Counted from the first letter of the stretch, positions 7,433 to 47,045 are shown. The stretch: DNA of 64,000 bases from Eledone cirrhosa (GCA_964016885.1 OZ024742.1:137206001-137270000), one strand, 5' to 3'. Numbers and translations: made by a program. The notes: generated from the sequence alone by a model not told the origin.

Positions 7433-7681
7433 TATATATATATATATATATATTATTATTATTATTATTGAATGCTATGGTTGACGGAGGCTCGGCTCTG
7501 TAAGGTATTGTAAATATTGACCGCTATATCAATTGTAAATTGTTTAAAACTTTAACCAAATTGTAGACAAAAACACCCTCCTCCTCATGAGAGGGGTCTT
7601 TCTGCCCGTTATTTGGCCCTTCGGTGTTAAATAACCGCTTATAGGGGTTTTGTGCCCAATATTTATTTAAAAAAAAAAAAA

Positions 7682-9814
7682 ATGGCTACGAAAAAGAATT
7701 TTCATAAGTCACTCCCACTCATACCGTCTTCTTCTTCCTCAATCGTCACTACAGCAGAGAGAAGATTGTCTCTCTCCCTCCCTTCTCTAAATGTGTCTCT
7801 CTCCCTCCCTTCTCTTTCGCATGCGACGCCAGAAAAGAAAAATCACGTGCAAAGCGTGCAAGATTTCTCCACGACGACAACGACAACGACGAAAAAGGTG
7901 TGCGGGAAATACGAAAACCCATTTCATTTGTCTGACGTCAGGAATAATAGCTGTAGCAGCCGTAATAACAGGAGTCGTAATAACAGCAGCAACAGCAACA
8001 GTGACAAGGAAAACAACAGTAGCAGCCGCAACAGCATCAGCAGCAGCATAAACAACAACAGCATTAGCAGCAATAACAACAAAAACCACAGCAACAGCGG
8101 CGGCGGCAGTAGTCGTAGTACCTGCAGCAACAACAAAAGTAACAGCAGCTCTGACGACAACAACAACAGCAGCAATGAAAAAACAATCTCGTTTGCAGGT
8201 ATCGCAAAGAACCTGGAAACCATCCTCATAACAAATGAGGAATTAGAGGAAGCGAAGAAGAGGGTGACGAATACCGGACACCGAGCAATCTGAAAGGCAG
8301 CCGAACATTTTTTCGAAACCCAACAGCACTGTACGGTCAAGTACCGTACAGTAAGCACAAAATCCCGTAGGGTTGAAAGAGCCACAGAGGCTCAAATACA
8401 AAAGTCCTGAGGGTCTGTGTGGCAGCGGAAAACGCACATCACCCGAGGCAAGAAATATGCCACCGTAAACGTGCTTTTTGCCACACCCCAGGAGGCAAAG
8501 GCTCAATCCTTAGTGACCCTAAGGAGCGAGGAAATGGTGTTGGTGCCCTCCTACAGCGGGCAAAAAATTGTGAGTGTCAAACTGACCCACGCCCCCCCCC
8601 CCCCCCCCGGGATGTCCCCTTCTTGGCTGGCCGCGTCTGTCCTCGTCGGAAACGAGGACAAAACAACTGTACTGCAAGTACAGAAAAAAGTAAGAGAAGA
8701 TTGGGTCGGCAAGTCCATTGAGATGTTAATCCAAACCAACCAGGAGTGCATCGAAGCTATCCCGGATGTGATAGACTTCGATAACGGCACTCAACTGCCC
8801 ATAAGTGTTGAGGGCAAATGCCCGAAATGCTTTCGCTATGGATCGAAGACTCACCTCAGGGCCTTCTGCAACGAGAAGACCCTGAGAAAGGAAAATAAAA
8901 ACTTCCTTCCGAAACCGGCTCCACGGCTACCAGCAACAGGACATGCAGCAACCAGGAACGATAGGTCCGTGGCACCCTTACCCACGGCACGGAAATCAAG
9001 AACAGCAGCAGCAGTGGAAGTATTAATAACAACAACAGCAATACCAAATGCAGCTGAAACAGAGACTCCACTGCAAACATCACCAACAACAACAAGTGAA
9101 AGAGTGGAGCTGGTACCCCTCCCCGACCTCACAGAATCAGACATGGAGTGGGAAGTGGGAAAGGGATGGCAAAAGGTCGTAAGAAGGCACAAACGCAGAA
9201 GCAGCGCATCATCGCCTTCGAAAAGGGAGGGAAGAAATGAAAAAAGGGTAAAGGCTACTGCAAAGAGACTCACAGCAGCAACACCACCAACACCATCACC
9301 ACCCACACTAGCACCACCATCACCACCGGCGACAACCCCGCCGCCAACAACAACAACACCTTCAACACCACCACCACAATAACCAACATCGCAAACACAA
9401 CAACAAAACACGCACACTCAGCAACAACGACAAGAAAATAGCAGAACCACACCCCACCCCCAGAAAAACAAATGCACGGCAATAAATACACACAACAAGA
9501 AACTAATGACTTACATAATTGAACACACAGACATTTCACAGCACGACTACATAATACCAGCACCAATGAAAACGCCAACGAACATAAGACTGCTAAAAAT
9601 AGCACAGAAACAACACACAAACATTAAAACGAAATTCCCCAACGCAGTTGGTAATTTCAGAGACCTAGGAGGGACTCTCAACCGGAGAGTATATTCGGAC
9701 ATACTCATAGAAGAGCCGACGACCAACCGAAGGGACGATTCAACGGTCCCTTCACCAGACGATCAAGTGAAAAGGGATGGAGAAACCATCCTTCCTCTAC
9801 GAAAAGTATGGTAA
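7682..9814 (+). pseudogene. Tx1 copy 1 ORF1 (gag-like; degenerate CCHC knuckle; Asn/Ser- and Pro/Thr-rich tracts)
   Basis: ORFs 7652-8293, 8417-9382 and 9506-9814 share one frame, interrupted by stops at 8291, 8408 and 9380; CFRYGSKTHLRAFC knuckle remnant. Confidence 0.8.
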
Positions 9815-9849
9815 GTGGTCTTTCCCATCTTTTCCACTCTATTTTAAAC

Positions 9850-12800
9850 ATGACCTCACTCAGAATAGGCAGCATAAATGCGCGTGGCTTGGGGTCGTCA
9901 TGGAAGCAGGGTCACCTGCTCAACGACCTCAGGTCACTAAACATAGATGTAGTGGCCATCAGCGAGACCAGAATCTCCGAAGCCCGGGCCTTCACATCGA
10001 TCTTCGGCGGCTACGATGTAAACGCATCTCCCTGCCGTCCTGGATCGGGGGGAGGAGTTGCTGTGTTTTTCGGAGAGGTTTGGATATCGACATACGGGCC
10101 ATCTTCCTGGACCCAGAGGGTAAGTTGGTGGTGCTGGACGTGACCAGCGGAGACGGGCAAGCTTTCAGGCTAGTGGTCGTCTATGCCCCGACAGGAGCAG
10201 GGCGGCCTGATTTCTTCCGACGTCTGCTGAACTTTTTTGGAACGTCCCGCTATATAGTGTTAGTGGGCGACTGGAACGAGATCTTAGATGCACACTAGGA
10301 CTGTGTGGGATTAACGGATAGGGGTGGAGAGTGCAAGAGCCTCACCAACCTGCTCAGGCGTTTTGAACTGTCTGACAGGTACCGATTGGATTTCCCGAAT
10401 GTGCCAATGTGGACTTGGACAAATCGCATAGGGTCATCCAGATCATATCTAGATAGAGTATTTTGTCGGGAAATAGATAGGTCTAGCATAGGTTGTCCAC
10501 AATTCAAGATAGTCAGCTACACGGACCACAAATTCGTGATCTGTGTGCTTGACTTAGATAGGCTTCATAGACGAGGACCCTGCTACTGGAAGCTAAACGC
10601 GTCCTTACCTGCGCGCAAGGCCTACAGAGACCGGATTAGCTAACTAGTTAAGCGGGCGTTGACGGGGGCCATCGTCAACAACAAGTGGTGGTTTGCTCTG
10701 AAAAGAGCGATTAGAATTAAATCCATTAGGTTTAGTAAGGCTTTAGCAATAAAGAAAAATAAGCAGAGGGAGAATTAGTTAGAAAATTAGACGAGGCGCT
10801 TAGCAAAGGCATCGCGACCGACGTGCTTGCGGCGAAATTGGCCCTTGACCAATTCTTCAATGCAAAGCACGAAGGCTGCGTTGTCAGAGCTAGGGTGCGT
10901 GCTCTCAGACACGAGGGGACGAAAGCCGTTCAATGGGCCCGAGTGGCGGAGGCGCATCATGGCAACAAAGCCACGATCCGGTCTTTGGTGGAACACGACA
11001 GGCGCATGCTACTCGATCCCGGGCAAATGTGTGAAGCTGTTCAGCGACACTACGCTCAGCTGTTCGGGGGCAGCAGTGGGCCGGGTCGAGGGATGGACTT
11101 TAGTGTCTACCTCGACGGACTGCCGCGGCACTCGGCCACTGAAGCGGAGTGTTGCAAAAAGTCGATAACAGCCGCTGAAGTACGGGAGGCAATGACTGGC
11201 TGCACAAGTGGTAAATCGCCTGATTTGGATGGTCTGCCCTATGAACTTTACGTACAGATGCCAGACTTGTTCAGAGGCCTGTTGGCGGACGTCTACTGCA
11301 ACTGGCAACAGAATGGGAGAATTCCCAGCTCTGTGAGCCGAGGAGCGGTGGCACTGCTGAGAAAGGAGCGAACAAGGGGGATAACATAGATAATTTCAGG
11401 CCCATAACTCTGCTAAACACAGAGTTCCAGATTTTGGCCAAGGTGCTAGCAAAGAGGTTGGCGCTTGTCGTCGGTGGTCTGGTGGGAGAGGCGCAGACAT
11501 GCGCCATTCCCGACAGATCCATCCACGACAACCTCCACCTCATGCGATACATCGTAGAGAGGGTAGCTAGGGAACCTGGCACGGGTGGGTCCTTGATCAA
11601 TTTAGATCAGTCGAAAGCTTTCGATAGGGTCGACCATCGTTACCTAGCAGCAGTCCTGAGGGCGGCTGGCTTTGGGCCCGTCTTCAGAAGCTGGATCGCT
11701 GCCATGCACAGCGACATTTGCTCTGTGGTGAGAGTGAACGGTCACCTTTCGGAACCGTTCAACATCATGCGCTCGGTCCGCCAAGGATGTCCCCTCTCGT
11801 CCCTCTTGTACGTATTGACTCTCGAGCCATTACTGCACAAACTGGAGACGTTGAGGGACATCCCACGCGAACTAGGATGCGGAAGATCCGTGTCAGCATA
11901 TGCGGACGATGTCACCGTAGTGGTGTCGAACGCCAAATACATCGAGGCGATCGGCACTACACTAAGAGAATACGAAGCGGTGACAGGAGCAATGATCAAC
12001 CAGGAAAAGTCAGTGGGCCTGCAGCTCGGCACCTGGAGAGGCAGGTCCATGCCGTCCAACAGCGTCGTCGGACGCTGGACGGACGGACCGGTTAAATTGC
12101 TAGGGATCTGGTTCGGTCCAGACCTCCAGACGGACAAAAACTGGGATGAGGTGACGAGCAGGGTGGTTTCTCTCACCCAGAAATGGGCGGAGAGGAAGCT
12201 ATCCCTGAAAGGTCGAGCGGAGGTGGCTAACGCGTACATCGCGTCTGTCATCTGCTACCGCCTGACCGTCGTACCTTGTCCTAAGCCCCGCCTGACTGCG
12301 CTGGAGCGGTTGCTCTTTCGCTTTTTGTGGAAGGGACGCGCTCCGAAGGTGAGGCGGTCTATCTGCTGTCAACACTCGCTACGTGGAATGCTGGGAATGC
12401 CGTGGCTGATGATGCGCAGACACGCGCTCAGGCTACGACATCTTCATCTCTTCCTCGACGGTGATCAGGTGTGGTCGCTGTTTGCTAGACACGTATTTCC
12501 CCAGCTCGTTTCCTTGACGGAGCTGCAGTCCTGGGTCAAGCGAAGACCGAGAGGGAGCGCCTGGAGACTGGAATGTCTTCAGGCGCTCACAGCCCTCGAC
12601 CAATCGGGCAATGTGATCGGTGGAAACTCCACCTCGTCGTTCTATAGAGGATTAGTGGAGGGGAAGAGCGACGACGTACCTGGGGAAACTCTAGGCGTCA
12701 ACGAAAATCAACTAGCCAATCTCTTCGGAAGAACTTTCCGGCCGGGGCCTATGGACACCTTCCAGAAATCTCTGGCCTGGCAGTGCTACCGAGGAGCCTT

Positions 12801-13267
12801 GCCAGTTCGGGATAAACTCTACAAGCATGGAGGTGCCGTCAGCCGGGCATGTCCGAGATGCGTGCAGGGCGACGAAACCGTCCTGCACGCACTCGTCCAG
12901 TGTCCGAAAATTTGTTGACTTGTGGGTTTATGTCGAACACCTGCTGTCGCGTGTAGGACGGATCCGGCTATCAGCAGAATCCATTGTGACGATTGCCCCG
13001 CCCTCCTTCTTTAGCCGGGAAGGGCAGGCAGTTTTTATCTGTCTGGTGGCCATGGCGAAAGAGATAGTATGGTGGACACGTTTGAAAGGGCTGAAGACGA
13101 GCACTTACCTCTTCGGTGATGCCCTGATTGACTTTTTCAAATTTCATTTGAAAAGGAAAATCAGAGTAGAGAGGGAAGTGCTCTCTTCCCAGCATTTTGT
13201 TGAAAGATGGGTGAGAGAAGCAAGAATGGCCCGAGTGAATGGGCCTACTCTGAATATATATCTGTAA
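9850..13267 (+). pseudogene. Tx1 copy 1 ORF2: APE endonuclease, reverse transcriptase, C-terminal zinc-binding region (frameshifted)
   Basis: SINARG, AISETR, VYAP, GDWN, YLDR, TDH (APE); LDQSKAFDRVDH, VRQGCPLS, AYADD (RT); CPRC...ETVLHALVQC. Confidence 0.92.
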
Positions 13268-13773
13268 ATTAAAGGTGGAAAACTGGGACAGGACACTTGC
13301 CTTGGTGGTCAGGGTCATTGTGGCCTTTTTACTGGGCTTTCTCAACAAATGTCCCTCCGAAGTCCCCCCCCCCCCTATTGGGGAATTTTTCATTTTTATT
13401 TTTTGTTACATCCTCTGTTTTTGTTTTTTACACGCAGAAATGCCCATTTGTACCGTCCTGTATTGTCCTGCACTGTCCTTAATGTCTACTTTATGTAAAC
13501 CCATGTGGTTAATAAAGAAATCATTATTATTATTATTACTATTATTATTATAAAAGAACAGGAGGCTGGACTGGTGTAGGAGATGTAGGAGGTAGGTGAG
13601 TATGTTGCTCGGAGGAACACCAAAAGTGTGAAACGGAATCTGTCAGCTTCTCTCCCTTCCTTTGCTGAAAAAAGGTGTAAGTGACATAGTCACTACTTTA
13701 AAATAATAGCGCAAGGTCTACAAAATGTTTTTAATTAAACATACAGTATATTACCAAATATATAATACATACA

Positions 13774-13827
<54 letters not shown>

Positions 13828-14406
13828 AGCAAATTTGGCACCAAATGTTCCTGTGTCTATAATAACAGTCTACAGACTACAATATAATTTCTACAATCAA
13901 TACTTAATCTCACACTTCCTCAGAAAGCTGAAGGTTTCAATGTTTGGGTGAAGTTTTCAATGTTTGCCAAAGGTCATATATGGTCAAAATGGCAGATAGG
14001 GTAGAAAGCGAAGGACATAAAAGGAAAGGGTGAAAGTTAGGATAGAATGGAAAAGGAGAAAGAATTAAGAAATTAAGAATGTTTGGAAAACTATTGAATT
14101 CGTAGCGTGAAAAGTTCAAATGGCACAGGTTAAATGTAATAAATAGGATGTAGTAAATTATAGGTATTAGAGATCGAATCCTGTTCTAGTCTAGTTTGCA
14201 TTTAGCGAAAGTGTTTATAATGTTATGTTTGCAATTAAATGCCCTATCATGCCGTGAAATTAGAAGGTCCTTTAGGGTTGTTATTTCAATAACTCCAGAT
14301 ATAATTCACAGGCATCTTTCATTCCGGTACGGACAGGCGAATTTCGACAGCAATGATTTTGGTGTGTATTCAATATTGGCGCGCTTCAGGTCCAAGACTT
14401 TTACAC

Positions 14407-14725
14407 CTTGGAAGCTTTAGCTGTGGCGCTGTGGCTATAGATTATTTCGGCTTCACTGTCATAAAACACCGCTCGCCTTGGAAGCTCTAGCTGTAAGTCT
14501 GAGGCGATAGCTTTCTCCGACTTCACTGTGCTAAAGAACCCCTCACATTGGAAGCTCTAAATGTGGCTCAGTGGCTATAGCTTTTCCCGGCTTCGCTGTG
14601 CTAAAGCATCGCTCACCTAGGAAGCTCTAGATGTGGTACTATAGCTAATACTTCCTTCGGCTTCGCTGTGATAAAGCCCCGTTTACCTAGGAAGCTCTAG
14701 CTGTGGGTCTGCGGCTATAGCTTCC
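14407..14725 (+). repeat. Minisatellite, ~70-bp unit x ~4.5
   Basis: GGAAGCTCTAGCTGTGG...GGCTATAGC...CGGCTTCGCTGTG recurs at ~14407, 14477, 14547, 14617, 14687. Confidence 0.85.
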
Positions 14726-14859: not shown

Positions 14860-17600
14860 ATTTGGAACACCTTGGATTTGAAATTGAACCTTCTTAGGTC
14901 AAAGATCCTTCCCGTAGTTCTAACTTGTAAGAGAACACCCTTTACACATTCCTGGAATGCATGAGTCAGCATCACAGCAAAAAATATTGAAAACTGTGTG
15001 GGAGCCGGGACATCTCCCTGCATCACGCCATTATCAACTGCGATTTCATTGGACAATTATCCATTAAAGACAACCCGAGCCTTCATATTTCTGTGTAATC
15101 GGACGAACATATCAATAAACTTTGATGGGAACCCTATTTTCGTTAATATTTTCCTCGGTGCACCTTTCTTCACGTATCAAGTCCTTTGACAGATCAACAA
15201 AAACCTGATACTGAGGAATCCGCTGCTCAATACATTTCTCATGAATCTGCCTTGCAGTGAAGATTATACCAATCCTCCCTCTTCCAAATCTAAAGCCATT
15301 TTGTGATTCAGGGACTACTGTAGGACAAATGATCTCCATCAACCTGTTCAACAATAATCTACCAAGAAATTTGCCCACAGACTCCAACAGAGTGATGACA
15401 CGATAGTGATCGCAAATTCCTTTATTCCCTTTACCTTAAAACAAGATCACCAAGATACCTTCTCTCCAATCTGGTTGTATAGGATCTCCAGAACAGCACT
15501 CTGTGATGAGATGGAATATTGTTTGTGTTATGTTCTTATTACCAACCTTTAACAATTACACAGAGATTCCATCTGATCAAGGTACTTACACGTGTTTAAC
15601 TGGTTGATGGCCATTTTCACCTCATTATAATCTGGTATTCGATCAATTTTAAAATTTGAAACACATTGGGGATGTCATCTAGCACATCATTATCAAGCAG
15701 TGAAATATTCTTGGCAACGCTTAAGGGTTTTCTCTGATTCCTTGATGATGGCAATGTTATCTTTGTACCTTATGGGAACAATAGACGAAGTTGCTGGACT
15801 ATATACTGCACGCAAAGACGATAAAACAGTTTTGAACCCTTTTCGTTATAAGCACTTTCAATATCTTCAACCACCATTTATTTTTAAGCTTTCTCAGCTC
15901 ACGTTGTAAGCTTATATTGTTTATATGTCTTTTTAATATCAGTTAAATTCGTAGGGCACTCTCCCAAAAGCTTTTCATGAAGAAAATGTTTTTTCTTTGG
16001 CTGATAACCAGATTATTGTCATCAAACCAGTCTTTCTTTTTTCACCCTAAATCCAAGTTCTTCTGCTCCTGCTGTATACAATTGATCCCTGAAGTTTATC
16101 CACGTTCCATCGAAGTCAATATTATTCAAACGTTTATTCAAAGCCTCACGTACTGTTTTAACTTTCCAATATCAATACGCTTCAGTGTTTTGACCCCACA
16201 CATTCGAGATTTTTTCCGAACACGTAATTTAAACTTCCCCCAAACCATCTTATGGACTGTGTTGCATTCTGTACTACGCATGATATGTACATTACATGCA
16301 TCATTCAGGTCGCATCTCCGGGTTACTTTGAAATCTATTATAAGACCATCTTTTGACATTGGGTGTATCCAGGTAATTTTATGCTTCTTCTTTTGGCGGA
16401 AGAATGTATTGCAAATTGCTAGATTGAGTTTCGAACAGAGCTCAAGTAGCTTCAACCCATTGGCATTCATATTACCAATGCCATAATGGGCTAGTGCATA
16501 CCATGTCTCATGGTCTCTACCAACTCGGGCATTGAAATCACCAAGAATGATCACTTTTTCTTCGACTGGAGTAGATGCAATTGTAGCACAAAGGGATTCA
16601 TAGAATACTTTCATCACTGGCCTGGAGAGTTGCACATTGCCCACGTGCAAGTGGAATGTGCAATTTCATTATATGGTCACTGATTCTAGAGGGACACTCT
16701 AAATGTTGTGCTAGAATCTCTCGCACTGAAAAACCTACACAACCTTCTCGCCATTCTCTTTTTGATTTCCATATCCAGAAAAGTATGAAACCTGATGATG
16801 TTTCAGACAGCTGATCACACCTTGATAGACGTGTTTCTGACAAGGCTGCAATACCTATACTTAATCTTTGAAGTACCTTTGTTACCAGTGCGGTTCTTCT
16901 TTCTGGTTGGTTTGATGAATTTCCGTCCTGAAGGGTTCTGACATTCCAGCAGCAAATATTTAGTTTGATTCGATTTCTCATAAATGCTTTACTTTGCAAT
17001 TCACTTCTTTCTTTTCCTGCTTGAAAGAACCGCCAATAGCCGCAGTAAACTACGTAACGTTGATGTGACAGGCAATTTTCAATGCACCTTTTCTAGCACC
17101 TTCCTAAGAATGTGGGTGAGCAGTGCTCTCCGTGATAGGGCTACTCAGATACAGGCGTCTCCACCGGAGTTAGCCCCTGTCACATAATCGGAAGGCATAA
17201 CAACGATGTTATTATAAGACCCCTGACACCTCTGAGTAAATTTGCAACTATCTGCTTCCAACTGGTCAGGTCTGAACACTTCGCCACTCCTCATCACCAT
17301 AGTGCTTTCAGCTGTAAAAATGAAAAGATCACAAAAGAGACATCTGTGCATCATTGGATTATCGTGTCAAAGACTTGTATTAGACAAGCACCACTCTCTA
17401 AGATTCAGTGATTATTGTCTGGTGACAAGCCTAACTCAGATGACCAGTAATCACATCAATCACAGGTTTTATTTCAAAGTTTCCCGCTTAAAGAAAGATA
17501 CTGTAACAACAGATCGGGATCCTTCACTCCCAGTGGATTTATTTTTACCCATCTGTGGGCCACCACACCTGCAAACGAATTACAATGATTCGCTAAGTCT
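14860..17600 (-). mobile_element. RTE-clade LINE (BovB-like), degraded, 3' part lost
   Basis: CWNVRTL, AALSETR, ILGDFNARVG, NTFF, TWIHP (APE); PESQNGFR, FVDLSK, NGVMQGDVPAPTQFSIFF (RT); 5' boundary approximate. Confidence 0.85.
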
Positions 17601-26100: not shown

Positions 26101-26685
26101 CAATTATTTCTACATTTGGCACAAGGCCAGCAATTACTGGTGCATTACTGGTGCTTCATTTTATCGACCCCGTAAGGGTGAAAGGAAAAGTTAACCTCGG
26201 CGGAATTTGAACTCAGACCGTAAAGGGCTGTAACTATATGCTGCAACTCATGGCGCCCAACCCTCTACCGATACTGCCAATCCACCAGGCAAATAATTGT
26301 TTCTGCTTTTGGCACAAGGCCAGCAATTAACCAGTGCATTACTGGTACTTTATTTTATCGATCCCGTAAGGATGAAAAGTAAAGTTAACCTAGGCAGGAT
26401 TTGAACTCAGACTTTAAAGGGAGGTAACTATGCTGGAAAGCATGACGTCCTACTCTCTATCGATACTGACAGGAAAATAATGATTTCTTGTAAAGACACA
26501 AGGCCAGTAAATTGTGGGGAGGGGAAAGTCGTTAAAATCGATCCCAGTACGTTACCGGTGCTTTATTTTATCGACCCCGTAAGGATGAGAAGCAAAGTTA
26601 ACCTCGGCGGGATTTGAACTCAGACATTAAAGGGAGGTAACTATGCTGGAAAGCATGACGTCCGACTCTCTACCGATATTGACAG
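26101..26685 (-). mobile_element. Three head-to-tail SINE family A copies
   Basis: Copies at ~26101-26287, 26292-26470 and 26477-26683; the third carries the longer GGGGAGGGGAAAGTCG subfamily insert. Confidence 0.88.
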
Positions 26686-31611: not shown

Positions 31612-31776
31612 CCTTGTGCCACTACCATAATAATGATGGCGGTTCATTCTGTCGCCATGAATATTAAAAGAAGTGAAGTTATTAATGTATTACCGTGCGG
31701 GATCTACATGTCTGTTGGTTCTATCGCAGCTGTTAAAAAACAATGCCAAAAGAGTGTAAAATTATTATTATTATTA

Positions 31777-32224
31777 CAGGCCCATAACTATGCTCAACAC
31801 AGAGTTTAAAGTGTTGGCCAAGGTGTTAGCAAAGAGATTGGCGCTTGTCGTCGAGGATTTGGTTGGGGAGACGCAAACTTGTGCAATCCCAGCCAGGTCC
31901 ATACACGACAATCTCCTCCTCATGCGATACATCATAGAGAGGGTAGGGTGTAAACTTGGCTTCGGTGAGGCAATGATCAATCAAAAGCATTCAATAGGGT
32001 CGACCATCGGTATCTGGAGTTTGTCCTCAAAGCAGCTGGCTTCGGCCCTGTTTTCAGAAGCTGGATCGCTACAATGCACAGCTGCACAGGCTCGGTGATC
32101 AAGGTTTATGGCCACCTCTCGGAACCATTTCAGCTCTCCCTATCGGTCCGTCTAGGGTGCCCTCTCTCTTCCCTTCTGTACGTATTGACTCTTGAGCCTT
32201 TACTGCGGAAGCTAATAAATGAAA
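31777..32224 (+). mobile_element. Tx1 RT fragment after (ATT)n, internally deleted
   Basis: RPITMLNTEFKVLAKVLAKRL...SIHDNLLLMRYI; ends GCTAATAAATGAAA like the 3' end of copy 4. Confidence 0.85.
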
Positions 32225-32228
32225 AAAG

Positions 32229-32610
32229 GGCGGTGGATTGGCAGTATCGGTAGAGAGTTGGACGCCATGCTTTCCAGCATAGTTACGTCCCTTTACGATC
32301 TGTGTTCAAATCCCGCCGAGGGTGACTTTGCCTATCATCCTTACGGGGTCGATAAAATAAAGTACCAGTAATACACTGGGTAATTTCTGGCCTTGTCCCT
32401 AAAGTAGAAACAATTATATTATTATTATTATAAAGGCGTTGGATTGGCGGTATCAGTAGCGGGTTGGACACCATACTTTCGCGCAAAGAGTTACGTCCCT
32501 TTAAGATCTGAGTTCAAATCCCGCCGAGGTTAACTTTGCCTTTCAGCCTTACGGGATCGATAAAATAAGGTACCAGTAATGAGCCAAAAATAGAAACAAT
32601 TATAATTATT
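32229..32610 (+). mobile_element. Two tandem SINE family A copies with ATT tails
   Basis: GGCGGTGGATTGGCAGTATCGG at 32229 and GGCGTTGGATTGGCGGTATC at 32435; tails ACAATTAT(T). Confidence 0.9.
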
Positions 32611-32625
32611 ATTATTATTATTATT

Positions 32626-35600
32626 GTTCTTTGAGTCTCAGTCATTGATGTTATTTAACTAGATAGTTTGTTGAAATGAATATCAAGCCACTACCTGCAG
32701 CCTCAGATATTCAGGACGTATCGGAGGGTTCTTGCTGTTCCTAGCAAGTATGCCTTTTTAAGTGTTCCAAAAAGCGGGGCTAATTTTCTTTAACCATCCC
32801 TGGAAACTCTTTGAGATAGTACCTAGTGCGCCTATGACAATCGCGACCACGTTGACTTCATGGCAGTTCGAAATCCTTTTTACCTCCCACTTTAAGTCCT
32901 GGTATCGATTAATTTTCTCCCTCTCCTTCTCTTGCACTCTGGTGTCGAATGGGCAGGCCACATCCACAATCAGGCACGATCTTTTTTCCTTCTCCAAAAC
33001 CACCAGGTCAGGTCTATTGTGTTCCAGTTTCTTGTCCGTCTGTATCCTAAAATCCCACAGCACCTTCACCTAATCGTTTTCTATCACCGACTCTGGCTTA
33101 TGCTCATACCACTTCTCAGAATGTGGTAAATTGTTAACTTTGCATAGGTGTTTACACTCGGAATCAATGTGAGCCACAGTCTCCTCTCTCTCTCCACATA
33201 TCTTGCACTGCACAGTGGGCTAGCCTCCTCCTTGTAAATATGGTGTTCAGCCACTTCGTTTTGAGGGCCTGCTCTGGCGCAGCCATTAGCATTCCTTCTG
33301 TAGCCTTTTTAAGGTCTCCTCTTTCCAACCAGTTCCATGTCTGTGGATCTCTGAATTCAGTTTTCTCAAAGAAGGTACTATGAAGGGATTTTTCATGAAG
33401 GTTGCTCTTTCTCCTTGTTGTTATTTCCTCTTTGGACATCCTCTGGTCTATTGTCCTCTCCTTCAGTACAATTCTGAGCATTGGCTCCCTACTATCAGTC
33501 ACGTATTTGTGTAGGTTGTTTTTCTCCATCTGAACACAGTCCTCAATGCTGATAAGACCTCTTCCACCTTCAGATCTCCTTAAGTAGAGTCTATCGACAT
33601 CCTCCTCTTGTGGAACATGGTGTAGATACTCAATAGCCTCCTAGTCTTCCTATCCATTTCTTTTTGTTCAGCAACATTCCATCTCAGAATTCCCGCACTG
33701 TACATAATAATAGACACAACTCGGGAATTTACTGCACTTATGGCATTCCAACTGTTCAGATGTGATTTTAATACGCTCCTTACTCACCAAATGTATTCAG
33801 ATCTTATCAATTCCTTCATTTTTTTCTTCTTGATGTCATCAGCCTCCAGAACACCCAAATACTTGTATCCTTCTTCAGTGTCAATTTCATTTATAATCTC
33901 ACCTGTTGGTACCTGGATTCCGTTGCTTCTGCTCAATTTACCCCTCTTCATCACAAGGACTCCACACTTAATAATACCAAATTGCATACATATATCATTG
34001 CTGAAAATACGGATAGTGTCAAAAAGCATATCCAACTCCTTCTCACTCTTCCCGAAGAGCTTAAGATCGTCCATGAAGAGGAGGTGATTGATGGTAAGCT
34101 CTCCCTTTCTCAACTTATATCCTGCTCTCACTTTTCGCAGTATAATGGTCAGGGGCATCAGGGCAAGGACAAATAAAAAGATACGTCTCTTGATCTTCAC
34201 GCCTCCCAATGATTCTCCAGCTGATTTTAACTCTGTTTTCCAGGACTTCATAATTTTGCTCAACAACTGTCTGATGTTATCTGCCACCTTGAAGATCTCT
34301 AGGCTTTTGGTGATCAAAGAATGAGGCACCATGTCAAATGCCTTTTTTGTAGTCTATCCATCCCATGGCAAGACCAGTGTGTCTCCTCTTGCAATTCCTC
34401 ATTACCATCTTATCAATAAGTAACTGGTCATTTGTACCACGGGACTTCTTTCGGCCTCCTTTCTGTTCGTCCTGTAACAAGTTGTTTGTGTGGAAGTGAT
34501 GGTATATTTCCGCAGACACAATGCTTGTCAACAGTTCCCACATTACGGATAGACATGTGTTAGGTCTATAGTTGGTAACATCATTACCCTTTATTCGGTC
34601 TTTCATTACCAGAACTGTGGTACCTTTTGTCAACCACTCTGGTACCCCACCTGACATCAAGCATTCATTGAACATGGTTGTCAGTTTCGGGTGGAGGAAT
34701 GTTATATGTTTTATCCAATACCCCTGCACACCATCTGGGCCTGGTGATTTCTAGTTGGTTAGTCTTTTGGCCTGCCCCTTAAGAGTTTCAACTGTGATAC
34801 ACAAATCAGTTTGTTGGTGTGCCTGTTCACTAATCTCCTTTTGTACTATCTCAATCCACACTGCCTGGTCATTATGTTTAACATCCTGCTCCCATATTCC
34901 TCTCCAGAATGTCTTAGTCTGTTCCGTCCTAGGGATCAAGTCGTTGCCTCTTTCTTTCCCTTCAAGCTGTCCAAACAGTATCTTCTGCTTGTTGTCAAAT
35001 ATGCCGTTCTGTCTATACTGACTGACTCTGATCTCGTATCGCCTAAGTGTTGCACTCTTTGCTACAATGCATTGCTTCAGTTCCTCTATGATAATATTTA
35101 CCTTTTTCCTCCTAGTTTTGTACTTTATTTCCAGTCTATTTTTAGTGTCTATGTCTTTTAGTGTCCCATTCAGTAGGGACCCAAGCTTTCCAATGTCATT
35201 TCTCATTTCTCTGATTTGACCATTCAGTCGTTTCTTCCACCAAGGCTCTGATCTTTCTTGTTCGTTGTTTCCTCTCGATGTTATGCCAAGTAATTTCCTC
35301 ACCGCATTTGCTGTTGCTTTGAGGATATTGTTGCACTGGTGAAGGCTCCTCGCCTCAAGATATGGGATGACTTTGTTTACCTTAGCTGTTGTTTCTTTTA
35401 ACTTTTTCCTTTCTACAAATCTTAGGTTCATGGTTTTCCCACTATCATCGTTCAATTCATCTACCACTAAGTTTAGGATATCAACCAAATATTGTCCTAG
35501 CCCGCCAGCATTCATCTCCGCAATGGCCGAATCTTTGTTCGAGGTATTATTTATTTCAGCATTCAGATCACTGTCTGCTTCGGATAGTTCCTCCGTTCTC

Positions 35601-35890
35601 TCAACCTCTTAATTTCCCACTGGCTCGTTTGCCTGGCATACTCCACCCTCCATTTCCAACCTAATATCTCTGCTTAGTTCCTCCAGTTCCAGCTCGCTTA
35701 TCCACCCATTAGTTCTTATTACCCGAGCCTGCCTGACCAATTTTTGTTCATCTAATTTAAATAGACCAATCTTGTTCCAGATGTTATGCATCCGTTTCCT
35801 ATAGCCTCTTTCCTTGGGGTTACTCGTCGGGTAACGTTGCATAACAGCTCTATTCATTTCTTTCGTCCAGTTAGTTCTGGTCCCTTTCCT
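32626..35890 (-). mobile_element. R4/Dong-clade non-LTR retrotransposon (RT + CCHC + restriction-like endonuclease), degraded
   Basis: MNRAVMQ..SNPKERGYRKRM N-terminus, PWWKKRL, GYWIK, DQLLIDK, WIDYKK, HLLFMDDLKLF, YKYLGV, KVLWDFRIQTD...RPDLVV...IVDVACPFD...EKINRYQDL; 3' end runs into (TAA)n. Confidence 0.9.
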
Positions 35891-35891
35891 T

Positions 35892-38800
35892 CGGCCAAAA
35901 TGTTATCTCTGTGGGTCGAAGGGTCACCTCAGGTCCTTTTCCCCGCAGAAGACAGCGAAGAAGGCCCCTCTCCTTCCAATACCTGATCCGCTGCTACCAA
36001 GAGCAGGGCAGGGAACAAACGCAGAAGCCCCTTCCACGGTGAGTAGGAGGGCAACGTCCGCAGCACCCGTACCAAGGCCACGGATAACTAAAGCAGCATC
36101 ATCAGTGGCGGCAACACCAATAGCTACATTTGAAGTAGCTACACCAGCAACAAAATTGCCGAAGCGGGCTCCACTACCACCACCAACACCGTGGAGCACA
36201 TACCCCTCCCAGACGCCACAGAATCCGACATGGAGCTTGAAGCGGGAGTGAAGTGGCAAACGGTTTTCCACATAAAACAAAAAAAAAAACCCTTAGATTC
36301 ACCTTCCAAAAGCGAAGGCATAAAAAGAGGGGTAAAGGCAGCAAGGAAACTTGCAGCAACACCACCACCATCACCACCACAAATACCACTGACAACAACA
36401 ACCACACCACCACCAGCATCACCCAAAACACCAACAACGAAAACACAACAAGACACACACACCAAACAGCAACAAAATCACCCCTTGCCCAAAAAGTACA
36501 CAGCCATAAACATGGTAAAAAAAGAACTCATACAATATATAATGCAGCACACAAACATCACAGAAAAAAACTACTACAGCCCACCAATACGAAGAACTCT
36601 CCCGACAAACATAAGCATCATCGAAATCTCAATATAACAGTACAAACTTTTAAAACAAAAATTCCACAACGCATTGGAATCTTCAGAAGGTCGGTTACCA
36701 AGAGGATATACACTGACATCCTCTTGGAAACACGCATAACCAGCGAAAGGGACGGTTCTACTGTCCCTTCACCACATGATCAAGGTAATTGACCCTTTCT
36801 CACTTGCCCCGTTTCTAATCCAACATGGCCTTACTCAGAATAGGCAGTATAAATGTACGTGGCCTGGTGTCATCTTGGAAGCAGGGTCACCTGCTCAACG
36901 ACCACAGGTCACTAAACGTAGATGTGGTGGCCATCAGTGAAACCAGAATCTCCGAAACACAAGTCTTCGCACCGATCTTCGGCGGCTACGATGTATACGC
37001 ATCTCCCAGCCGTCCAGGGTCGGGGGAAGGAGTTGCCGTCCTTTTTCGGAGAGGCTTAGATCTCGCGATACGGGCCATCTTCCTAGACCCAGAAGGCAAG
37101 TCGGTGGTGCTGGACGTGACCGGCTGCGAAGGCAATGATTTCAGGCTAATAGCCGTCTATGCCCCAGCAGGGGCAGGACGGCCAGATTTCAACAGACGTC
37201 TAGAGACCTTTCATGGAACGTCCCGCTCTTTAGTTCCAGTGGAACGGTATCTTAGATGCACGCTGGGATCGTGTGCGGCTAGTGGATAGGGGAGGAGGGT
37301 GCAAGAGCCTCACCAACCTGCTCAGACGTTTTGAACTGTCTAACAGGTATAGACTGGATCACTCGAATGTGCCAATGTGGACATGGACAAACCGCATCGG
37401 GTCATCCAGATCGTATCTCGGTAGGGTATTCTGCAGAGAACTAGATAAGGCTAGTATAAGTTCTCCACAATTTAAAATAGTCGACTACACATACCACACA
37501 TTTGTGATCTGTGAGATCGACATAGACAGACTTCATAGACAAGGGCCTGGTTACTGGAAGCTGAACGCGTTTTTCCCTGCGCGCAAAGCCTACAGAGACC
37601 GGTTTAGCATATTAGTTAAGCAGGCGTTGACGGGAGCGGACGTCAACATCAGGTGGTGGTTCGCCCTGAAAAGGGCAATTAAAGTAGAGTCGATTAGGTT
37701 TAGCAAAGGAGTAGTGATAGAAGAAAATAGAGTAGAGGGAGAGCTAGTCAGAAAGCTAGAAGAGGCGTTTAGGATAGGCATCGCAACCGACGTGCTTGCG
37801 GCGAGATTGGCACTCGACCAATTCTTCAACGCAAAACACGAAGGCTGCGTTATCAGAGTTAGAGCGCGTGCTCTGAAACACGAGGGGACAAAAGCCGTCC
37901 AATGGGCCCGGGTGGCAGAGGCGCGACATGACAACAAAGCCACAATTCGGTCTTTGTCTAACCAAAACGGGTGCGTGATGCTCGAACCCGAGCGGATGTG
38001 TGAAGCTTTTCAGCAGCACTTTGCTGAACTGTTCGGGAGCGGCGGCGGCCAGGATAGGGGCATGGACTTCAGTGTATACCTCGACAGACTGCCTCGGCTC
38101 TCGACAACCGCAGCACAGAGTTGCGAAAAGCCAATAACAGCCGGTGAAATAAGGGAAGCGATGGCTAACTGCACAAGGGGTAAATGCCAGGTTTGGATGA
38201 TCTCACCTACGAGTTTTATGCATTTATGCCAGACTTGTTCGGTGACCTCTTGGCAGACGTCTACTGCAACTGGCAGCAGAACGGGAGCATTCCCAGTTTT
38301 GTGAGCCGGGGAGCAGTGGCGCTGCTGAGAAAAGACCCGAACAAGGGGGATGTTATCGATAATTTCAGGCCCATAACCTTGCTAAACGCAGAGTTCAAGA
38401 TTTTGGCCAAGGTGTCGTCGTCAAGGGTCTGGTGGGAGAGGCGCAGACATGCGCCATTCCGGACAGATCCATACACGACAAACTCCACCTCATGCGTTAC
38501 ATCATAGAGAGGGTGGTTAAGGAACCTGGCACGGGTGGGGCCCTGATCAACTTGGATCAATCCAAATCATTCGATAGGGTCGACCACCGGTACCTGGCGG
38601 CGGTCCTCGAGGCAGCCGGTTTCGGGCCCGTTTTTAGGGGTTGGATCACAGCAATGTACAGCGACATCTGCTCAGTTGTGAGGGTGAACGGTCACCTGTC
38701 GCAGCCGTTCAGCATCATGCGCTCAGTCCACCAGGGTTGTCCCCTCTCGTCCCTCTTGTACGTATTGGCTCTCGAACCATTACTGCACAAACTGGGGGCA

Positions 38801-40540
38801 ATGATGGGCGTCCCACGCGAACTAGGATGCAGGAAATCCGAGTCGGCTTACGCTGACGACGTCACCGTGGTGGTGTCGAGCACCAGACACGTCCATATGC
38901 TCGGCACCGCTCTCAAGGAATACGAAGCGGTGACAGGAGCAAAGATAAACTAGGAAAAGTCGGTGGGCTTGCAGCTCGTCACCTGGAGAGGCAAATCGAT
39001 GCCGTCCGACAGCATCGTGGGGCGTTGGACGGACAGACAGGTTAAATTGCTCGGGGTCTGGTTCGTACCGGACCTCCAGATGGAGAAAAGCTGGAACGAG
39101 ATGAGGAGCAGGGTGGCCTCTCTCACCCAGAAATGGGCCGAGAGGAAGCTGTACCTGAAAGGCCGGGCGGAGGTGGCGAATGAGTACATCGCATCCATCA
39201 TCTGCTACCGCCTCACCGTCGTCCCTTGCTCCAGCCCAACTCTCACCAAAATGGAGCGCCACCTCTTCCGCTTTTTGTGGAAGGGACGCGCTCCCATGGT
39301 CAGACGATCCATCTGCTGGCAACACCCGTTGCGTGGGGGAATTGGCATGCCATGGCTGATGATGCGCAAACATGCGCTGAGGCTGCGACATCTCTGGTGC
39401 ATCCTTGATGTTGAACAGGTGTGGTCGCCGTTCGCCAGGCACGTTTTCCCACAGCTCGTCTCCTTGACAGAGCTGCAGTCCTGGGTCAGAAAAATCCCGA
39501 GGGATAGCGCTTGGAAACTGGAATGTCTCCAGGCGCTCACTGCCCTCTGCCAGCTGGGCACCAGTATCAGTAGAACATCCACCTCGGCGTTCTATAGAGG
39601 ATTAGTGGAGGGGAAGAGTGACGACATTCTCGGAGAGATCCTGGGCGTCGAAGAAGATCAGCTCTTTGCTCTATTCCGGAGAACTTTCAGCCCGGGGCCT
39701 ATGGATAACTACCAAAATCCCTGAACTGGCAGTGCTACCGGGGAGCGCTGCCGGTTCGAGATAACTCTACAGGCACGGAAGTGCCGTCAGCCGAGCCTGT
39801 TCGAGATGCGCGCAGAGCGACGAAACCGTCGTTCACGCAATCCTTCAGTGCCCGAGCATTGCTGACTTGTGGAGCTATGTCGAACAGTTGCTGTCGCGTG
39901 TAGGACTGATCCGGTTGTCGACTGAGTCCATTGTGCAGATGGTCTCGCCGTCTTCCTTCGAGGAGGAATGGCATGTGGTTTTCATCTGCCTGGTGGCCAT
40001 GGCGAAAGATATTGTGGTGGACAAGGTTAAAAGGCTTAAAGACAGACACTTTCCACTTCGGCGAATCCTTAATTAACTTTTTCAGGTTTCACTTGAAGAG
40101 GAAAATCAGGGTGGAGAGGCAAGTGCTGCTTTCTAGCAAGTTTGTTGAAAGGTGGGTTAATGTAGCGAGAATGGTCCGAGTGAACGGGACCACTCTGAAT
40201 ATACGTCTGTAGTTTGAAAGATGGAAAAATTGAGAGAGGGCGCTTGCCCTGGTGGTCAGGGTGGCCGTGGTCTTTTGTGAGGTTTTCGCCACAAGTAACT
40301 CTCGGAGGTTTCCCCCCTATTGGGGAATTTTTCATTGTTTCAATTTTCATTTTCTTGTTTATATATATATGTTTCTATGTCTTTTTCTTTTTCCTTTCTT
40401 ATATAAATAATAAAAATTGTTACACGCACAAAAGTCCACATCGTACCGTCCTGTACCGCACTGTGCCGTCTGTAATGTTTTTCTTGATGTCAGCCCTTGT
40501 GGCCAATAAAGAAATCATTATTATTATTATTATTATTATT
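35892..40540 (+). mobile_element. Tx1 copy 2, 5'-truncated at the ORF1 zinc knuckle, (ATT)n tail
   Basis: Starts RPKCYLCGSKGHLRSF; ORF2 36825-40212 with APE/RT (AYADD) motifs and frameshifts; AATAAAGAAATC(ATT)8. Confidence 0.92.
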
Positions 40541-43500
40541 GGCGTCCTACGTAGTAAATCCTATCATCGTGAGCTCCGCAAAGGTTTGTTATTTTCAGTT
40601 GTTTAAAATTGCTATTCATGGAAAAGTTTTATTGTTAACTGTATATAAGTGCACATACATGGTTTTCCGAAAAGAACACTCAAAACGATTAGGGACTTGA
40701 GCCCAAAATTTAAACTTTAATAATCATAAATAAAAACTTTCTTTGAAAAAAACATGGATGACTCACAGCCACACGAAGCTGACAGCCTTCCTCACAAACT
40801 AACACCTCACACCGACACCACCATTGTAAATATTACTACGTTTGCCAACACGAAAAATATAAGCAGTAGCAATATTTTAAATTTGTCTCAGGCAGACATT
40901 CATTTCCCGCCATTACCAATGACTGCAGGTGTTAAAGCCGCCACCACCACCACCACCAGCAGAAACAAAAGAAAAAAATAAATTAACTCATGATATCGAA
41001 ATGAATTCAACCAAAATAAACTCTTCCACACCGAACACCACTGACGCCACCACCACCACAAATGAAACTAAAATTAGCAATAACAAAAATAACGATAACA
41101 ACAACAGCAACAATGAAATTAATAAAACTACCCTGAGTTTTGACAGAGTAGCAAAAACGTGCGAAGCGATACAGGTAACTCAGGAGGAATTAGAAGAGGC
41201 CAAAAAAAATGGTAAAGAAAGATGGGTACAGGGTCAGCCTCCCCTCACCACCACCTAATAAAATGGAGCATCGGCGCCTATGCACCGTGTCTTATCATAC
41301 AATATATAAAATCGCGCCGAGTGGAACGGGCATCAGAGTCCCAAATCCAAAATCTTTGGGACATGTGTGGGCAAAATAAATCCACATACGACGTGAGCAG
41401 AAGTATGGAACCGGGGACGTGTTCTTTGAAACACCACAGGAGGCTAAAGAACACTCCATGGCTCCATAAAGAAGTGACAACTTCACACTCGTCCCAAGCT
41501 ATTGTGGCCAGAGACTCGTAAAGATCAGGGTCACCCACGTTCCACCGGCCATCGAATTCCCTGGCTAATAGCTGCCGTCCTCACCGGCATCGAAGCCAAT
41601 ACCAAGATAATAGAAATAGCGAAAGAAAAGCAGGAGAACTGGTCCGGATCTGGGATGGAGCTCCTGATCCAAGCGGACCAAAAAAGAATTGAGGAGATCA
41701 CAGAGGTAATAGACCTCACTGACGGCAGCCACCTCACCGTAATTGTCGAGGGCAGAAGGCCTAGGTGTGTCGTTTGTGGTGAAGGAACCCACCTAAGGGC
41801 TTTCTGCCCTCAGGCTAAAAGGTTGAGGCCACCTCTCCTACCCACCCCAGTGACTCAACCATCAACACCACCAGCAGCAGAAATGGCAGCAACAACTGTA
41901 GCAGCAACAACAGAAACAACTGTAATAGCAACAACCCCAGCAACAGTAGCAAAACCAACACCACCACCACCCAAAGCGCCAGAACTAGCACCAGCGCCTA
42001 CACCATCCACCACGCCACAACCAAAACTAACGCCTGTGGAGGATTTTCCACTCCCCGGCCTATCACAACTGGAGACAGATTGTGACGGCGAGGAGTGGGA
42101 AACGCTATCAGGAAAAAAGAAAATAAGAAACCAAAAAAGAAAAAATTCTCTTCCTTCCCCCACCAAAAACAAAATACAGAGGGAAACAAATAAACTATCA
42201 AACAAAAAAGTTAGGAGAGACATGCCACCTTACACACCAGCATCACCAACCCTATCACCCCAAACACCAACACCATCACCATCATTAACCTCAACACCAC
42301 CATCACCAACACCACAAAAGTCACCAAAATGCGAAACAGAAACAAACCCACAACAAACGCAAACAAAACAAAACAACCAAAACGATACACACTACACAGC
42401 ATTAAATTTGAACAACAACCAATTATTACACTACATCCAACACAACACCAGCATCACAGAAAAAGACTACACAACAACCCAAAAGATCACACCACCTCCA
42501 CACATACAAATCACTCGCATCACACAGAAAACGTACATGACACTAAAACAAAAAATTCCCCAAAGACATCGGAGACTTCCGACAAGCACTCTCCAGGAGG
42601 ATTTATAAGGACATCCTTCCTGAGGAGGCCACAAGCAGTTAAAAGGATGGACACACCATCCTTCCTCTACGAGAAGTAAGGTAAGTGGTCTTTCCCATCT
42701 TTTCCACTCCATTTCAACATGACCTCACTCAGAATAGGCAACATAAATGCGCGTGGCTTGGGGTCGTCATGGAAGCAGGGTCACCTGCTCAACGACCTCA
42801 GGTCACTAAACATAGATGTATAGGCCATCTAAGTCGATCTACGGCGGCTACGATGTGTACGCACCTCCCAGCCGTCCGGGATCGGGGGGAGGAGTTGCTG
42901 TGCTTTTTCGGAGACGTTTGGATCTTGCCATACGGGCCATCTTCCTGGACTCAGAAGGTAAGTTGGTGGTGCTGGACGTGACCAGCGGAGACGGGCAAGC
43001 TTTCAGGTTAGTGGACGTCTATGTCCCGACAGGAGCAGGGCGGCCTGATTTCTTCCGGCGTCTGGAGACCTTTCTTGGAACGTACCGCTCTTTAGTGTTA
43101 GTGGGCGACTGGAACGGGATCTTAGATGCACGCTGGGACTGTGTCGGATTAGTGGATAGGGGAGGAGGGTGCAAGAGTCTCACCAACCTACTCAGGCGTT
43201 TTGAACTGTCTGACAGGTACCGATTGGATTTCCCGAATGTGCCAATGTGGACTTGGACAAATCGCATAGGGTCATCAAGATCATATCTAGATAGAGTATT
43301 TTGTAGGGAAATAGATAGGTCTAGCATAGGCTTTCCACAATTCAAGATAGTCAGCTACACGGACCACAAATTCCTGATTTGTGTGCTTGAATTAGATAGG
43401 GCTACTGGAAGCTAAACGGGTCCTTACCAGCGCGCAAGGCCTAGAGAGACCGGATTAGCGAACTGCGTTGTCAGAGCTAGGGTGCGTCCTCTCAGACACG

Positions 43501-46033: not shown

Positions 46034-47013
46034 AGCTGGCACCTGGAATGTTGCCAACCACTCACTGCCCTCTACCAAGCGGGCAATGCGATCAGTGGAA
46101 CTTCCACTCTCGAGTTCTATAGAGGATTAGTGGTGGGCAAGTGCGATGACGCACTCGGAGAAGCTTTGGGCCTCGACGAAGTCGAACTGACCCGTCTGTA
46201 CCGGAGGACTTTTGAGCCGGGGACGATGGACAATTTCCAGAAATCCCTCGCTTGGCAGTGTAACCGGGGGGTCACTGCCGGTTCGGGATAAACTCTACAG
46301 GCACGGAAGTGCTGTCAGACGGACCTGCCCAAGATGCGCACAGAACGACGAAACCGTTCTGCACGCACTTGTCCAATGTCCGTGCATTACTGACTTGTGG
46401 AGTTATGTCGAACAGCTACTGTCGCGTGTAGAACGATTCCGGCTATCGGCCGAGTCCATAGTGAGATCGATTCACCGCCTTCCTTAGGTCAGGAAGAGCA
46501 GGAAATGTTCCTCTATCTGGTGGCAGTTGCGAAAGAGATAATATGGTGGACCAGGTTGAAAGGACTAAAGACACTTTTCTCTTCGGCCAATCCCTCATCA
46601 ACTTCTTCAAGTTTCACCTGGAAAGGAAGGTGAGGGTGGAGAGAGAAGTGCTGCCCCCCAGTACATTTGCTAAAGGGTGGGTGAATCTGGCGAGAATGGC
46701 TCGTGTGAATGGGCCTACTCTGACCATGCGCCTATAGGCTAGCTAACTTGAGGAGAGGGGTGCGCTCCCTGGGTGCCCTAGAAGCGCAGGGTGGTTCAGG
46801 ATTGGTGGGGTACTCAAATCACCCCAGGGTCGTCCACCCCCTATCGGGGAATTTATTTTGTTATATTTATGAATAGTTTATTTTATATTTTTATATTTTC
46901 ATTGTTAATTAGTCTTGCCATTGTGCACTTTTACTCGATCTTATTGTAAACCCTCACTGTCCCTGTCTTTGTATTGTCCCCTACATGTCGGCCCTGGTGG
47001 CTAATAAATGAAA

Positions 47014-47045
<32 letters not shown>

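Follow-up and report, generated by a model that had tools for sequence, protein, structure and literature searches.

The element at this locus, copy 1, is a full-length, dead LINE of the L1/Tx1 group with an APE endonuclease and an RT. It occupies positions 7470-13522 of the window (the whole 64-kb stretch of Eledone cirrhosa DNA that was analysed) and is bordered by (ATT)n on both sides. Its parts are as follows.

7433-7452, (TA)n preceding the (ATT)6 tract of copy 1
7452-7469, plus strand, (ATT)6 tract 5' of copy 1, target repeat
7470-7681, plus strand, 5' UTR of copy 1, collinear with that of copy 3
7682-9814, plus strand, ORF1 of copy 1, about 710 codons with three in-frame stops
9850-13267, plus strand, ORF2 of copy 1, with APE endonuclease, RT and zf-RVT domains (Pfam)
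13498-13522, plus strand, 3' hairpin (4 bp stem, 5 nt loop), AATAAA signal and GAAATC terminus
13523-13551, plus strand, ATT tract 3' of copy 1, made up of a short encoded tail and target repeat

ORF2 is broken by four frameshifts and two or more stops, and Pfam recognizes in it the endonuclease (EN, PF03372), RVT_1 (PF00078) and zf-RVT (PF13966) domains; the 3' UTR runs to 13522. ORF1 contains linkers of low complexity, a single, degenerate CCHC knuckle near 8830-8870, and a C-terminal domain that is common to copies 2 and 3. This domain spans about 100 residues (9491-9811), is 42% identical to its equivalents in those two copies, and has neither a Pfam match nor a counterpart in the array-forming relatives described below. 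The 5' UTRs of copies 1 and 3 (about 215 nt) are collinear from their first bases, and none of 1000 mononucleotide shuffles matched their global alignment score, which supports the assignment of true 5' ends. A short GC-rich inverted repeat lies within the 5' UTR of copy 1 at 7578-7596.

BLAST and tBLASTn searches of the 64-kb window recovered five related pieces besides copy 1 and none further. These are a fragment at 31777, copies 2, 3 and 4, which are stacked over approximately 35890-47015, and copy 6 on the minus strand (57676-56724). They are listed here with the neighbouring elements.

26476-26510, minus strand, 3' end of a SINE that lies outside any microsatellite and shares its last 14 nt with the ends of copies 1 and 2
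31761-32224, plus strand, (ATT)5 followed by a 5'-truncated RT fragment with an internal deletion that leads to a copy-4-type 3' end (AATAAATGAAA)
32224-32625, plus strand, two tandem SINEs with ATT at the end of each, the second starting directly after the ATT tract of the first
32626-35890, minus strand, Dong/R4-like LINE with RT, CCHC and restriction-like nuclease, by translation
35890-40516, plus strand, copy 2, which starts within the ORF1 knuckle and is about 80% identical to copy 1 over ORF2
40517-40540, plus strand, (ATT)8 common to the 3' end of copy 2 and the 5' end of copy 3
40541-46018, plus strand, copy 3, full length with internal deletions
46019-46033, plus strand, ATT ATC (ATT)3 separating copies 3 and 4
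46034-47015, plus strand, copy 4, 5'-truncated, a separate subfamily 74-75% identical to the others
47016-47045, plus strand, (ATT)10 common to the 3' ends of copy 4 and a minus-strand Dong-like piece
47046 to about 47700, minus strand, second Dong-like piece
56724-57676, minus strand, copy 6, 5'-truncated, 72-74% identical to the ATT copies, with (TATC/ATCT)n on both flanks

Copies 1 and 3 constitute one ORF2 subfamily, and copies 2, 4 and 6 represent separate subfamilies that are 72-78% identical with an excess of third-position differences. Between copies 1 and 3 the 5' module has been exchanged: the 5' UTR and ORF1 (7470-9770 against 40541-42640) are 55-63% identical, and from the end of ORF1 on, through ORF2, identity is 89-96%. 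The array-forming relatives swap 5' modules likewise (ORF1 55%, ORF2 99.8% identical). We ruled out that copies 2-4 arose by tandem duplication, as their identity of 74-77% with third-position excess marks them as separate subfamilies. A single non-autonomous family comprising copies 4 and 6 was rejected because their differences are mostly at third positions (50/38/86), and further AATAAAGAAA sites at 4056 and 30599 were dismissed as extra copies. The truncations of copies 4 (46034) and 6 (57676) fall within a few bases of one ORF2 position, just before TGGCAC, and this common point may reflect a pause in reverse transcription or chance. In the 31777 fragment, the middle of the RT is joined to the 3' terminus through a 3 nt microhomology (32205-32224), a deletion that kept the poly(A) signal and lost the hairpin.

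The minus-strand LINE at 32626-35890 appears to belong to the Dong/R4-like family. Its RT has R2 as its nearest, weak PDB match, and an initial RTE label was dropped because a restriction-like endonuclease (RLE) motif is present. The (AAT)n end of this element, read on its own strand, lies in the same ATT tract as the end of the tandem SINEs. Single ATT tracts hold two element 3' ends, SINE or Tx1-type on one side and Dong-like on the other (32599-32625 and 47016-47045), and three element classes use one repeat type at these sites. Elsewhere the window carries an unrelated, decayed APE-type LINE piece (15300-17100, minus strand) with a weak Exo_endo_phos_2 match, and a minisatellite with a period of 70 nt and 4.6 copies (14404-14723).

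The first-pass annotation had described copy 1 as a Tx1-type LINE and had placed (ATT)n on both of its sides. An L1/Tx1-type element is supported by the Pfam matches to EN, RVT_1 and zf-RVT and by a higher score for L1 ORF2p than for R2, and the flanking (ATT)n is confirmed by the tracts at 7452-7469 and 13523-13551. With 110 bits for human L1 ORF2p against 47 bits for R2 (356 against 126 in the profile comparison), the RT is nearer to the L1 group than to the RLE elements. Copy 1 is not a Dong/R4 element, given that an APE is present and that the RLE-like motif is found solely in the neighbouring minus-strand element. Matches among named proteins are to a TX1-named coral protein and to lancelet and fish proteins at about 200-250 bits (single-element proteins), well above human L1, and the closest named relative is a protein of Argonauta hians with 68% identity. 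A protein entry of a Herbaspirillum MAG that matches a piece of ORF2 with 67% identity is likely to be host contamination.

Members of the Tx1 clade are distinguished by a Type I ORF1 with RRM and zf-CCHC rather than Transposase_22 (PMC5203782). Pfam gave no match to the ORF1s of the window. Copy 3 retains an intact CX2CX4HX4C knuckle, whose counterparts in copies 1 and 2 are degenerate; the knuckle aligns to that of one relative (L023). Among five intact ORF1s of relatives, all five have zf-CCHC, one of them weakly (E 0.07), and Pfam found neither RRM nor Transposase_22 in them. Membership of the Tx1 clade is likely.

The relatives derive from a scan of prokaryotic genome contigs, which returned 40 loci. 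One MAG supplied 39 of them and a second MAG the remaining one, and all appear to be eukaryotic DNA binned in error. The 39 loci of the bacterial MAG (L001-L039) have RTs 45-46% identical to those of the window and occur on contigs of up to 94 kb as largely intact, head-to-tail Tx1-like units of about 6.5 kb, with some 5'-truncated units inside the arrays. These contigs are probably mis-binned animal DNA, and the purity of the arrays points to self-targeting or to a role like that of a telomere or centromere. The units stop at AATAA(AG), with no tail and no repeat. Neither (ATT)3 nor (AAT)3 appears in any of 50 junction reads (33 distinct, from overlapping, non-independent loci in two records), and the 444 kb of sequence from these relatives contains no ATT or AAT run of four. 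The one dispersed relative, L040, has a 14 nt non-repeat target duplication directly after the element end.

In an RT tree of 48 rows (two dropped as too short; no L1, Repbase or named Kibi or Koshi rows), the window copies form a clade with support of 100 that is sister to the approximately 45%-identical array relatives, and the two groups are separate from the named fish (all five rows), lancelet and coral elements. On the strength of this one sister group, microsatellite targeting is likely to have arisen separately from that of Kibi and Koshi.

The association with ATT is evident at the junctions themselves. Four of the six copies begin directly after (ATT)n, namely copy 1 after (ATT)6, copy 3 after (ATT)8, copy 4 after ATC(ATT)3 and the 31777 fragment after (ATT)5, and copies 1-4 are followed by (ATT)n at their 3' ends. 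At all of these four 5' and four 3' junctions ATT is on the sense strand, so that there is one orientation. Copy 4 and the 31777 fragment are truncated inside ORF2, yet they too start directly after ATT. The exceptions are the 5' end of copy 2 (approximately 35890, inside ORF1), which abuts the minus-strand RLE LINE without ATT, and the 3' end of the 31777 fragment, which a SINE adjoins directly without ATT. For target-specific Tx1 families a cut-off of more than 20% of flanks of one type has been used (PMC4494074); within this window the copies exceed it, with ATT at four of six 5' flanks.

On a given strand, (ATT)3 precedes 0.2% of non-LINE positions of the window, and against this background the probability of at least four of six 5' junctions following ATT is 2e-10. 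Upstream of copies 3 and 4 the ATT doubles as the 3' tract of the copy before, which leaves copy 1 and the 31777 fragment as the only independent cases; when the stacked copies 3 and 4 are left out, two of four junctions follow ATT (P 2e-5). For these six copies from a single window, the enrichment is genuine and has firm statistical support. It bears out the first-pass view that copies 3 and 4 and the 31777 fragment follow (ATT)n even when 5'-truncated, and that the upstream ATT is genuine target sequence.

A passive origin, by random insertion into a microsatellite-rich genome with expansion of tails by slippage and better survival in repeat-rich regions, draws on the facts that 8% of non-LINE positions are preceded by some microsatellite, that the copies are old and broken, and that two of the four 5' tracts double as tails. 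However, ATT accounts for 2.5% of the microsatellite-preceded positions, and given insertion at a microsatellite the probability of four ATT junctions in five is 2e-6. Tail expansion, moreover, cannot place ATT upstream of isolated or 5'-truncated copies, and the repeat type agrees on both sides of each copy. Copy 1, the 31777 fragment and copy 6 all stand against it, and we regard a passive origin as very improbable.

The ATC(ATT)3 that lies 3' of copy 3 mirrors the ATC(ATT)n end of copy 2. The sequence at 46019-46033 could have arisen by duplication of the target, in which case it would fix where the nick was made; a point mutation would explain it just as well.

Copy 6 shares its AATAAAGAAA end with the other copies, yet both of its flanks are (TATC/ATCT)n instead of ATT. 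An imperfect tract of 19 nt is present on each side, the 3' one about 43 nt from the terminus, and terminus and both flanks have changed together to ATCT. A short CT run occurs near copy 6, away from the junction. This copy lacks an EN. It clusters with the ATT copies against Argonauta (support 98/97), with the fork among them unresolved, and a tree constrained to hold the ATT copies together gave a p-AU of 0.37, so that this grouping is neither rejected nor shown. The presence of copy 6 in (ATCT)n indicates that the group targets microsatellites of at least two repeat types, not ATT only. The proposal of an ATT-specific lineage consequently lacks support in that form, as an ATCT-flanked copy lies within the same tight cluster.

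Stacking of copies invites another explanation, in which new copies enter the 3' ends of earlier ones and ATT is incidental. Copies 2, 3 and 4 do lie head to tail, and 39 of the 40 loci of the relatives with 46%-identical RTs are in pure head-to-tail arrays of about 6.5 kb units. Against such self-targeting, no element lies upstream of the ATT that precedes copy 1 and the 31777 fragment, and copy 6 is alone in ATCT; we consider it improbable.

Copies 1, 2 and 4 end in GAAATCATT, and the LINE 3' terminus itself bears ATCATT(ATT). The 14-mer that ends copies 1 and 2 has three matches in the window where 0.01 would be expected, and the third is the SINE end at 26476-26510, which is outside any microsatellite. 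This location indicates that the short ATT tail is encoded by the element. A hairpin with a 5 nt loop is found approximately 15-19 nt upstream of the terminus in the window copies and SINEs, and further upstream in the relatives. At least three Watson-Crick pairs form in four of five LINE ends, eight of ten SINE ends and ten of ten relative ends, compared with a background of 34 of 2842 steps of 45 nt (1.2%); the hairpin is broken in copy 6 and in two SINEs. Across 18 hand-picked ends, 76.7% of cells are paired and four of the five pairs have changed on both sides, whereas slid controls reach at most 47.8% paired. Shuffled alignments equalled the observed values in 0 of 500 cases on three of five measures and in 68 and 415 of 500 on the others, counts that are not probabilities because the rows are related to one another and the motif had been selected visually. 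RNAalifold recovered the same stem unprompted in five window ends, and a search of Rfam gave no matches.

The SINE that shares this terminus and covarying hairpin with the LINE is abundant locally. Clear target duplications were found at two of 13 SINE ends (17 nt and 19 nt), each starting with ATTAT that overlaps the tail; the other 11 ends have no clear duplication. Only one of 12 near-complete SINE 5' ends (one of 11 in a second count) follows (ATT)3, compared with four of six for the LINE (Fisher p 0.03). Use of the SINE as an independent negative control was abandoned, as its terminus is common with the LINE.

The EN hairpin loop between the anchoring T and S comprises nine residues that are identical in copies 1-3. 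It has 11 residues in the array relatives, and among 69 pattern-matching hits it has 11 in 40 and nine in 15. A 68%-identical relative (P0241) carries a different nine-residue loop. A search of the PDB with the EN segment by itself brought no further insight. Published descriptions give 11 residues for Tx1L and TRAS1 and imply nine for L1 and seven for R1Bm (PMC1950540). As R1Bm is specific despite its short loop, loop length is weak evidence either way.

These observations bear on a further alternative, in which a sequence-specific APE alone recognizes (ATT)n, the tail is copied or read-through target, and the APE of the ATCT family has altered. Targeting led by the endonuclease is described as the default among Tx1 elements (PMC4494074), and Tx1L-EN nicks almost solely its own site (PMC1950540). 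Recognition by the APE alone better explains why the LINE keeps to long ATT tracts more than the SINE does, and the loop that is invariant in copies 1-3 and different in P0241 is in its favour. It accords less well with a nine-residue loop like that of the promiscuous human L1 where non-microsatellite relatives have 11, and with an ATCATT terminus that is conserved outside microsatellites. We judge it a possible explanation, albeit a somewhat doubtful one.

The reading to which we incline, with slightly more confidence than doubt, is target-primed reverse transcription to which nicking at short ATT motifs and pairing of the RNA tail both contribute. Target-primed reverse transcription would have placed these L1/Tx1-type copies in ATT and ATCT microsatellites. 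The endonuclease would cut the AAT strand wherever a short ATT motif occurs, and the RNA end, ...GAAAUCAUU(AUU), would pair with the freed strand through its AUCAUU segment and prime copying. Insertion would favour long (ATT)n tracts for the many in-register sites for nicking and pairing that they offer, and each insertion would leave a fresh tract, allowing copies 2, 3 and 4 to stack head to tail. The conserved 3' hairpin would be the RNA signal read by ORF2p, which the abundant local SINE would borrow, and one subfamily would have switched tail and target together to ATCT. The anatomy and flanks of the copies, the enrichment for ATT, the common termini and the covariation are observed; the nick position, the pairing, the function of the hairpin and the mobilization of the SINE we infer.

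Nicking combined with tail pairing would account for the fixed orientation, for the agreement in repeat type between the two sides of each copy, for the ATTAT starts of the SINE duplications, for the coupled ATCT change in copy 6, and for the lack of repeats around the tail-less relatives. As the tail ATCATT(ATT) is encoded, some of the specificity can come from its pairing with the target. By itself, tail pairing does not keep insertions within long tracts, as the single SINE 5' end of 12 after (ATT)3 indicates, and specificity led by the endonuclease fits equally well with a loop that is identical in copies 1-3 and different in the 68% relative.

The mechanism by which APE-type LINEs target microsatellites was described in a 2013 review as not well understood (PMC3812793). 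Subfamilies about 74% identical that reside on different repeats, together with a SINE that has the same end and relatives that have no tail, make a natural swap set, which would separate endonuclease specificity from pairing of the RNA tail. ATT and ATCT would join the list of Tx1 targets, APE and RLE elements would be seen to converge on one duplex from opposite orientations, and an abundant SINE would gain a candidate partner LINE; SINEs make up about 12% of Octopus vulgaris DNA (PMC13282606). In a broader account, an octopod Tx1 radiation, independent of the Kibi and Koshi elements of fish, would have arisen from tail-less, array-forming relatives, would retarget between ATT and ATCT mainly through a few RNA 3' tail bases that guide a loosely specific APE, and would be the unrecognized engine of a major octopus SINE family through the shared 3' hairpin. 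We offer this account tentatively and consider it unlikely as a whole.

Among known systems, Dong, an element of the R4 clade that is specific for TAA microsatellites (PMC3812793, PMC3774820), uses the same ATT/AAT duplex, and two Dong-like pieces lie in the tracts of the window copies. They differ from those copies in their C-terminal restriction-like nuclease motif and opposite orientation. The Dong-like RT is about 18% identical to that of copy 1.

Human L1 shares with the window elements the L1-group ORF2 architecture and a nine-residue EN loop. The L1 tail matches the start of its target duplication, and the Alu SINE uses L1 (in part PMC1950540, PMC3747384); here too the tail matches the duplication start and a SINE probably rides on a LINE. 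The window copies differ in that they have no poly(A) tail and in that their ORF1 has a CCHC knuckle and no Transposase_22 match. An ATT-type tail with a conserved 3' hairpin suggests, from the sequence, stringent 3' recognition.

Pairs in which a SINE shares the target preference or the 3' hairpin of a LINE are known from SINEU and Tx1-Mar of crocodilians and from maize SINE and L1, and the target preference of the SINE can be weaker than that of its partner (PMC4494074, PMC3747384). The difference is that here a short hairpin and an ATT terminus are shared and the target is a microsatellite. Annotations of octopus repeats list 80 L1-Tx1 families, 13 of them recently active (PMC13282606), and L1-Tx1 families are also recorded in PMC8967140 and PMC9115989; no target sites are given in the available parts of these annotations. 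The annotated families probably include the subfamilies of the window. In the literature we found no pairing of an octopus SINE with Tx1 and no Tx1 element that targets ATT or ATCT; Repbase and Dfam were outside this search, and prior cataloguing is quite possible.

Tx1 families resident in microsatellites include Kibi in (TC)n, Koshi in (TTC)n and crocodilian families in (TTCC)n and (TTTC)n (PMC4494074, PMC3812793), and a telomere-specific Tx1 element is cited in PMC10088271. Kibi, Koshi and the crocodilian families resemble the window copies as APE and RT elements of the Tx1 group that reside in microsatellites and whose related families occupy different repeats. They differ in occupying pyrimidine-rich repeats, whereas the window copies are on ATT or ATCT; with ATT or ATCT junctions rather than (TC)n or (TTC)n, these copies are not Kibi or Koshi by target. 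It is likely that they work as Kibi and Koshi do, and they add a new target to an established type of element.
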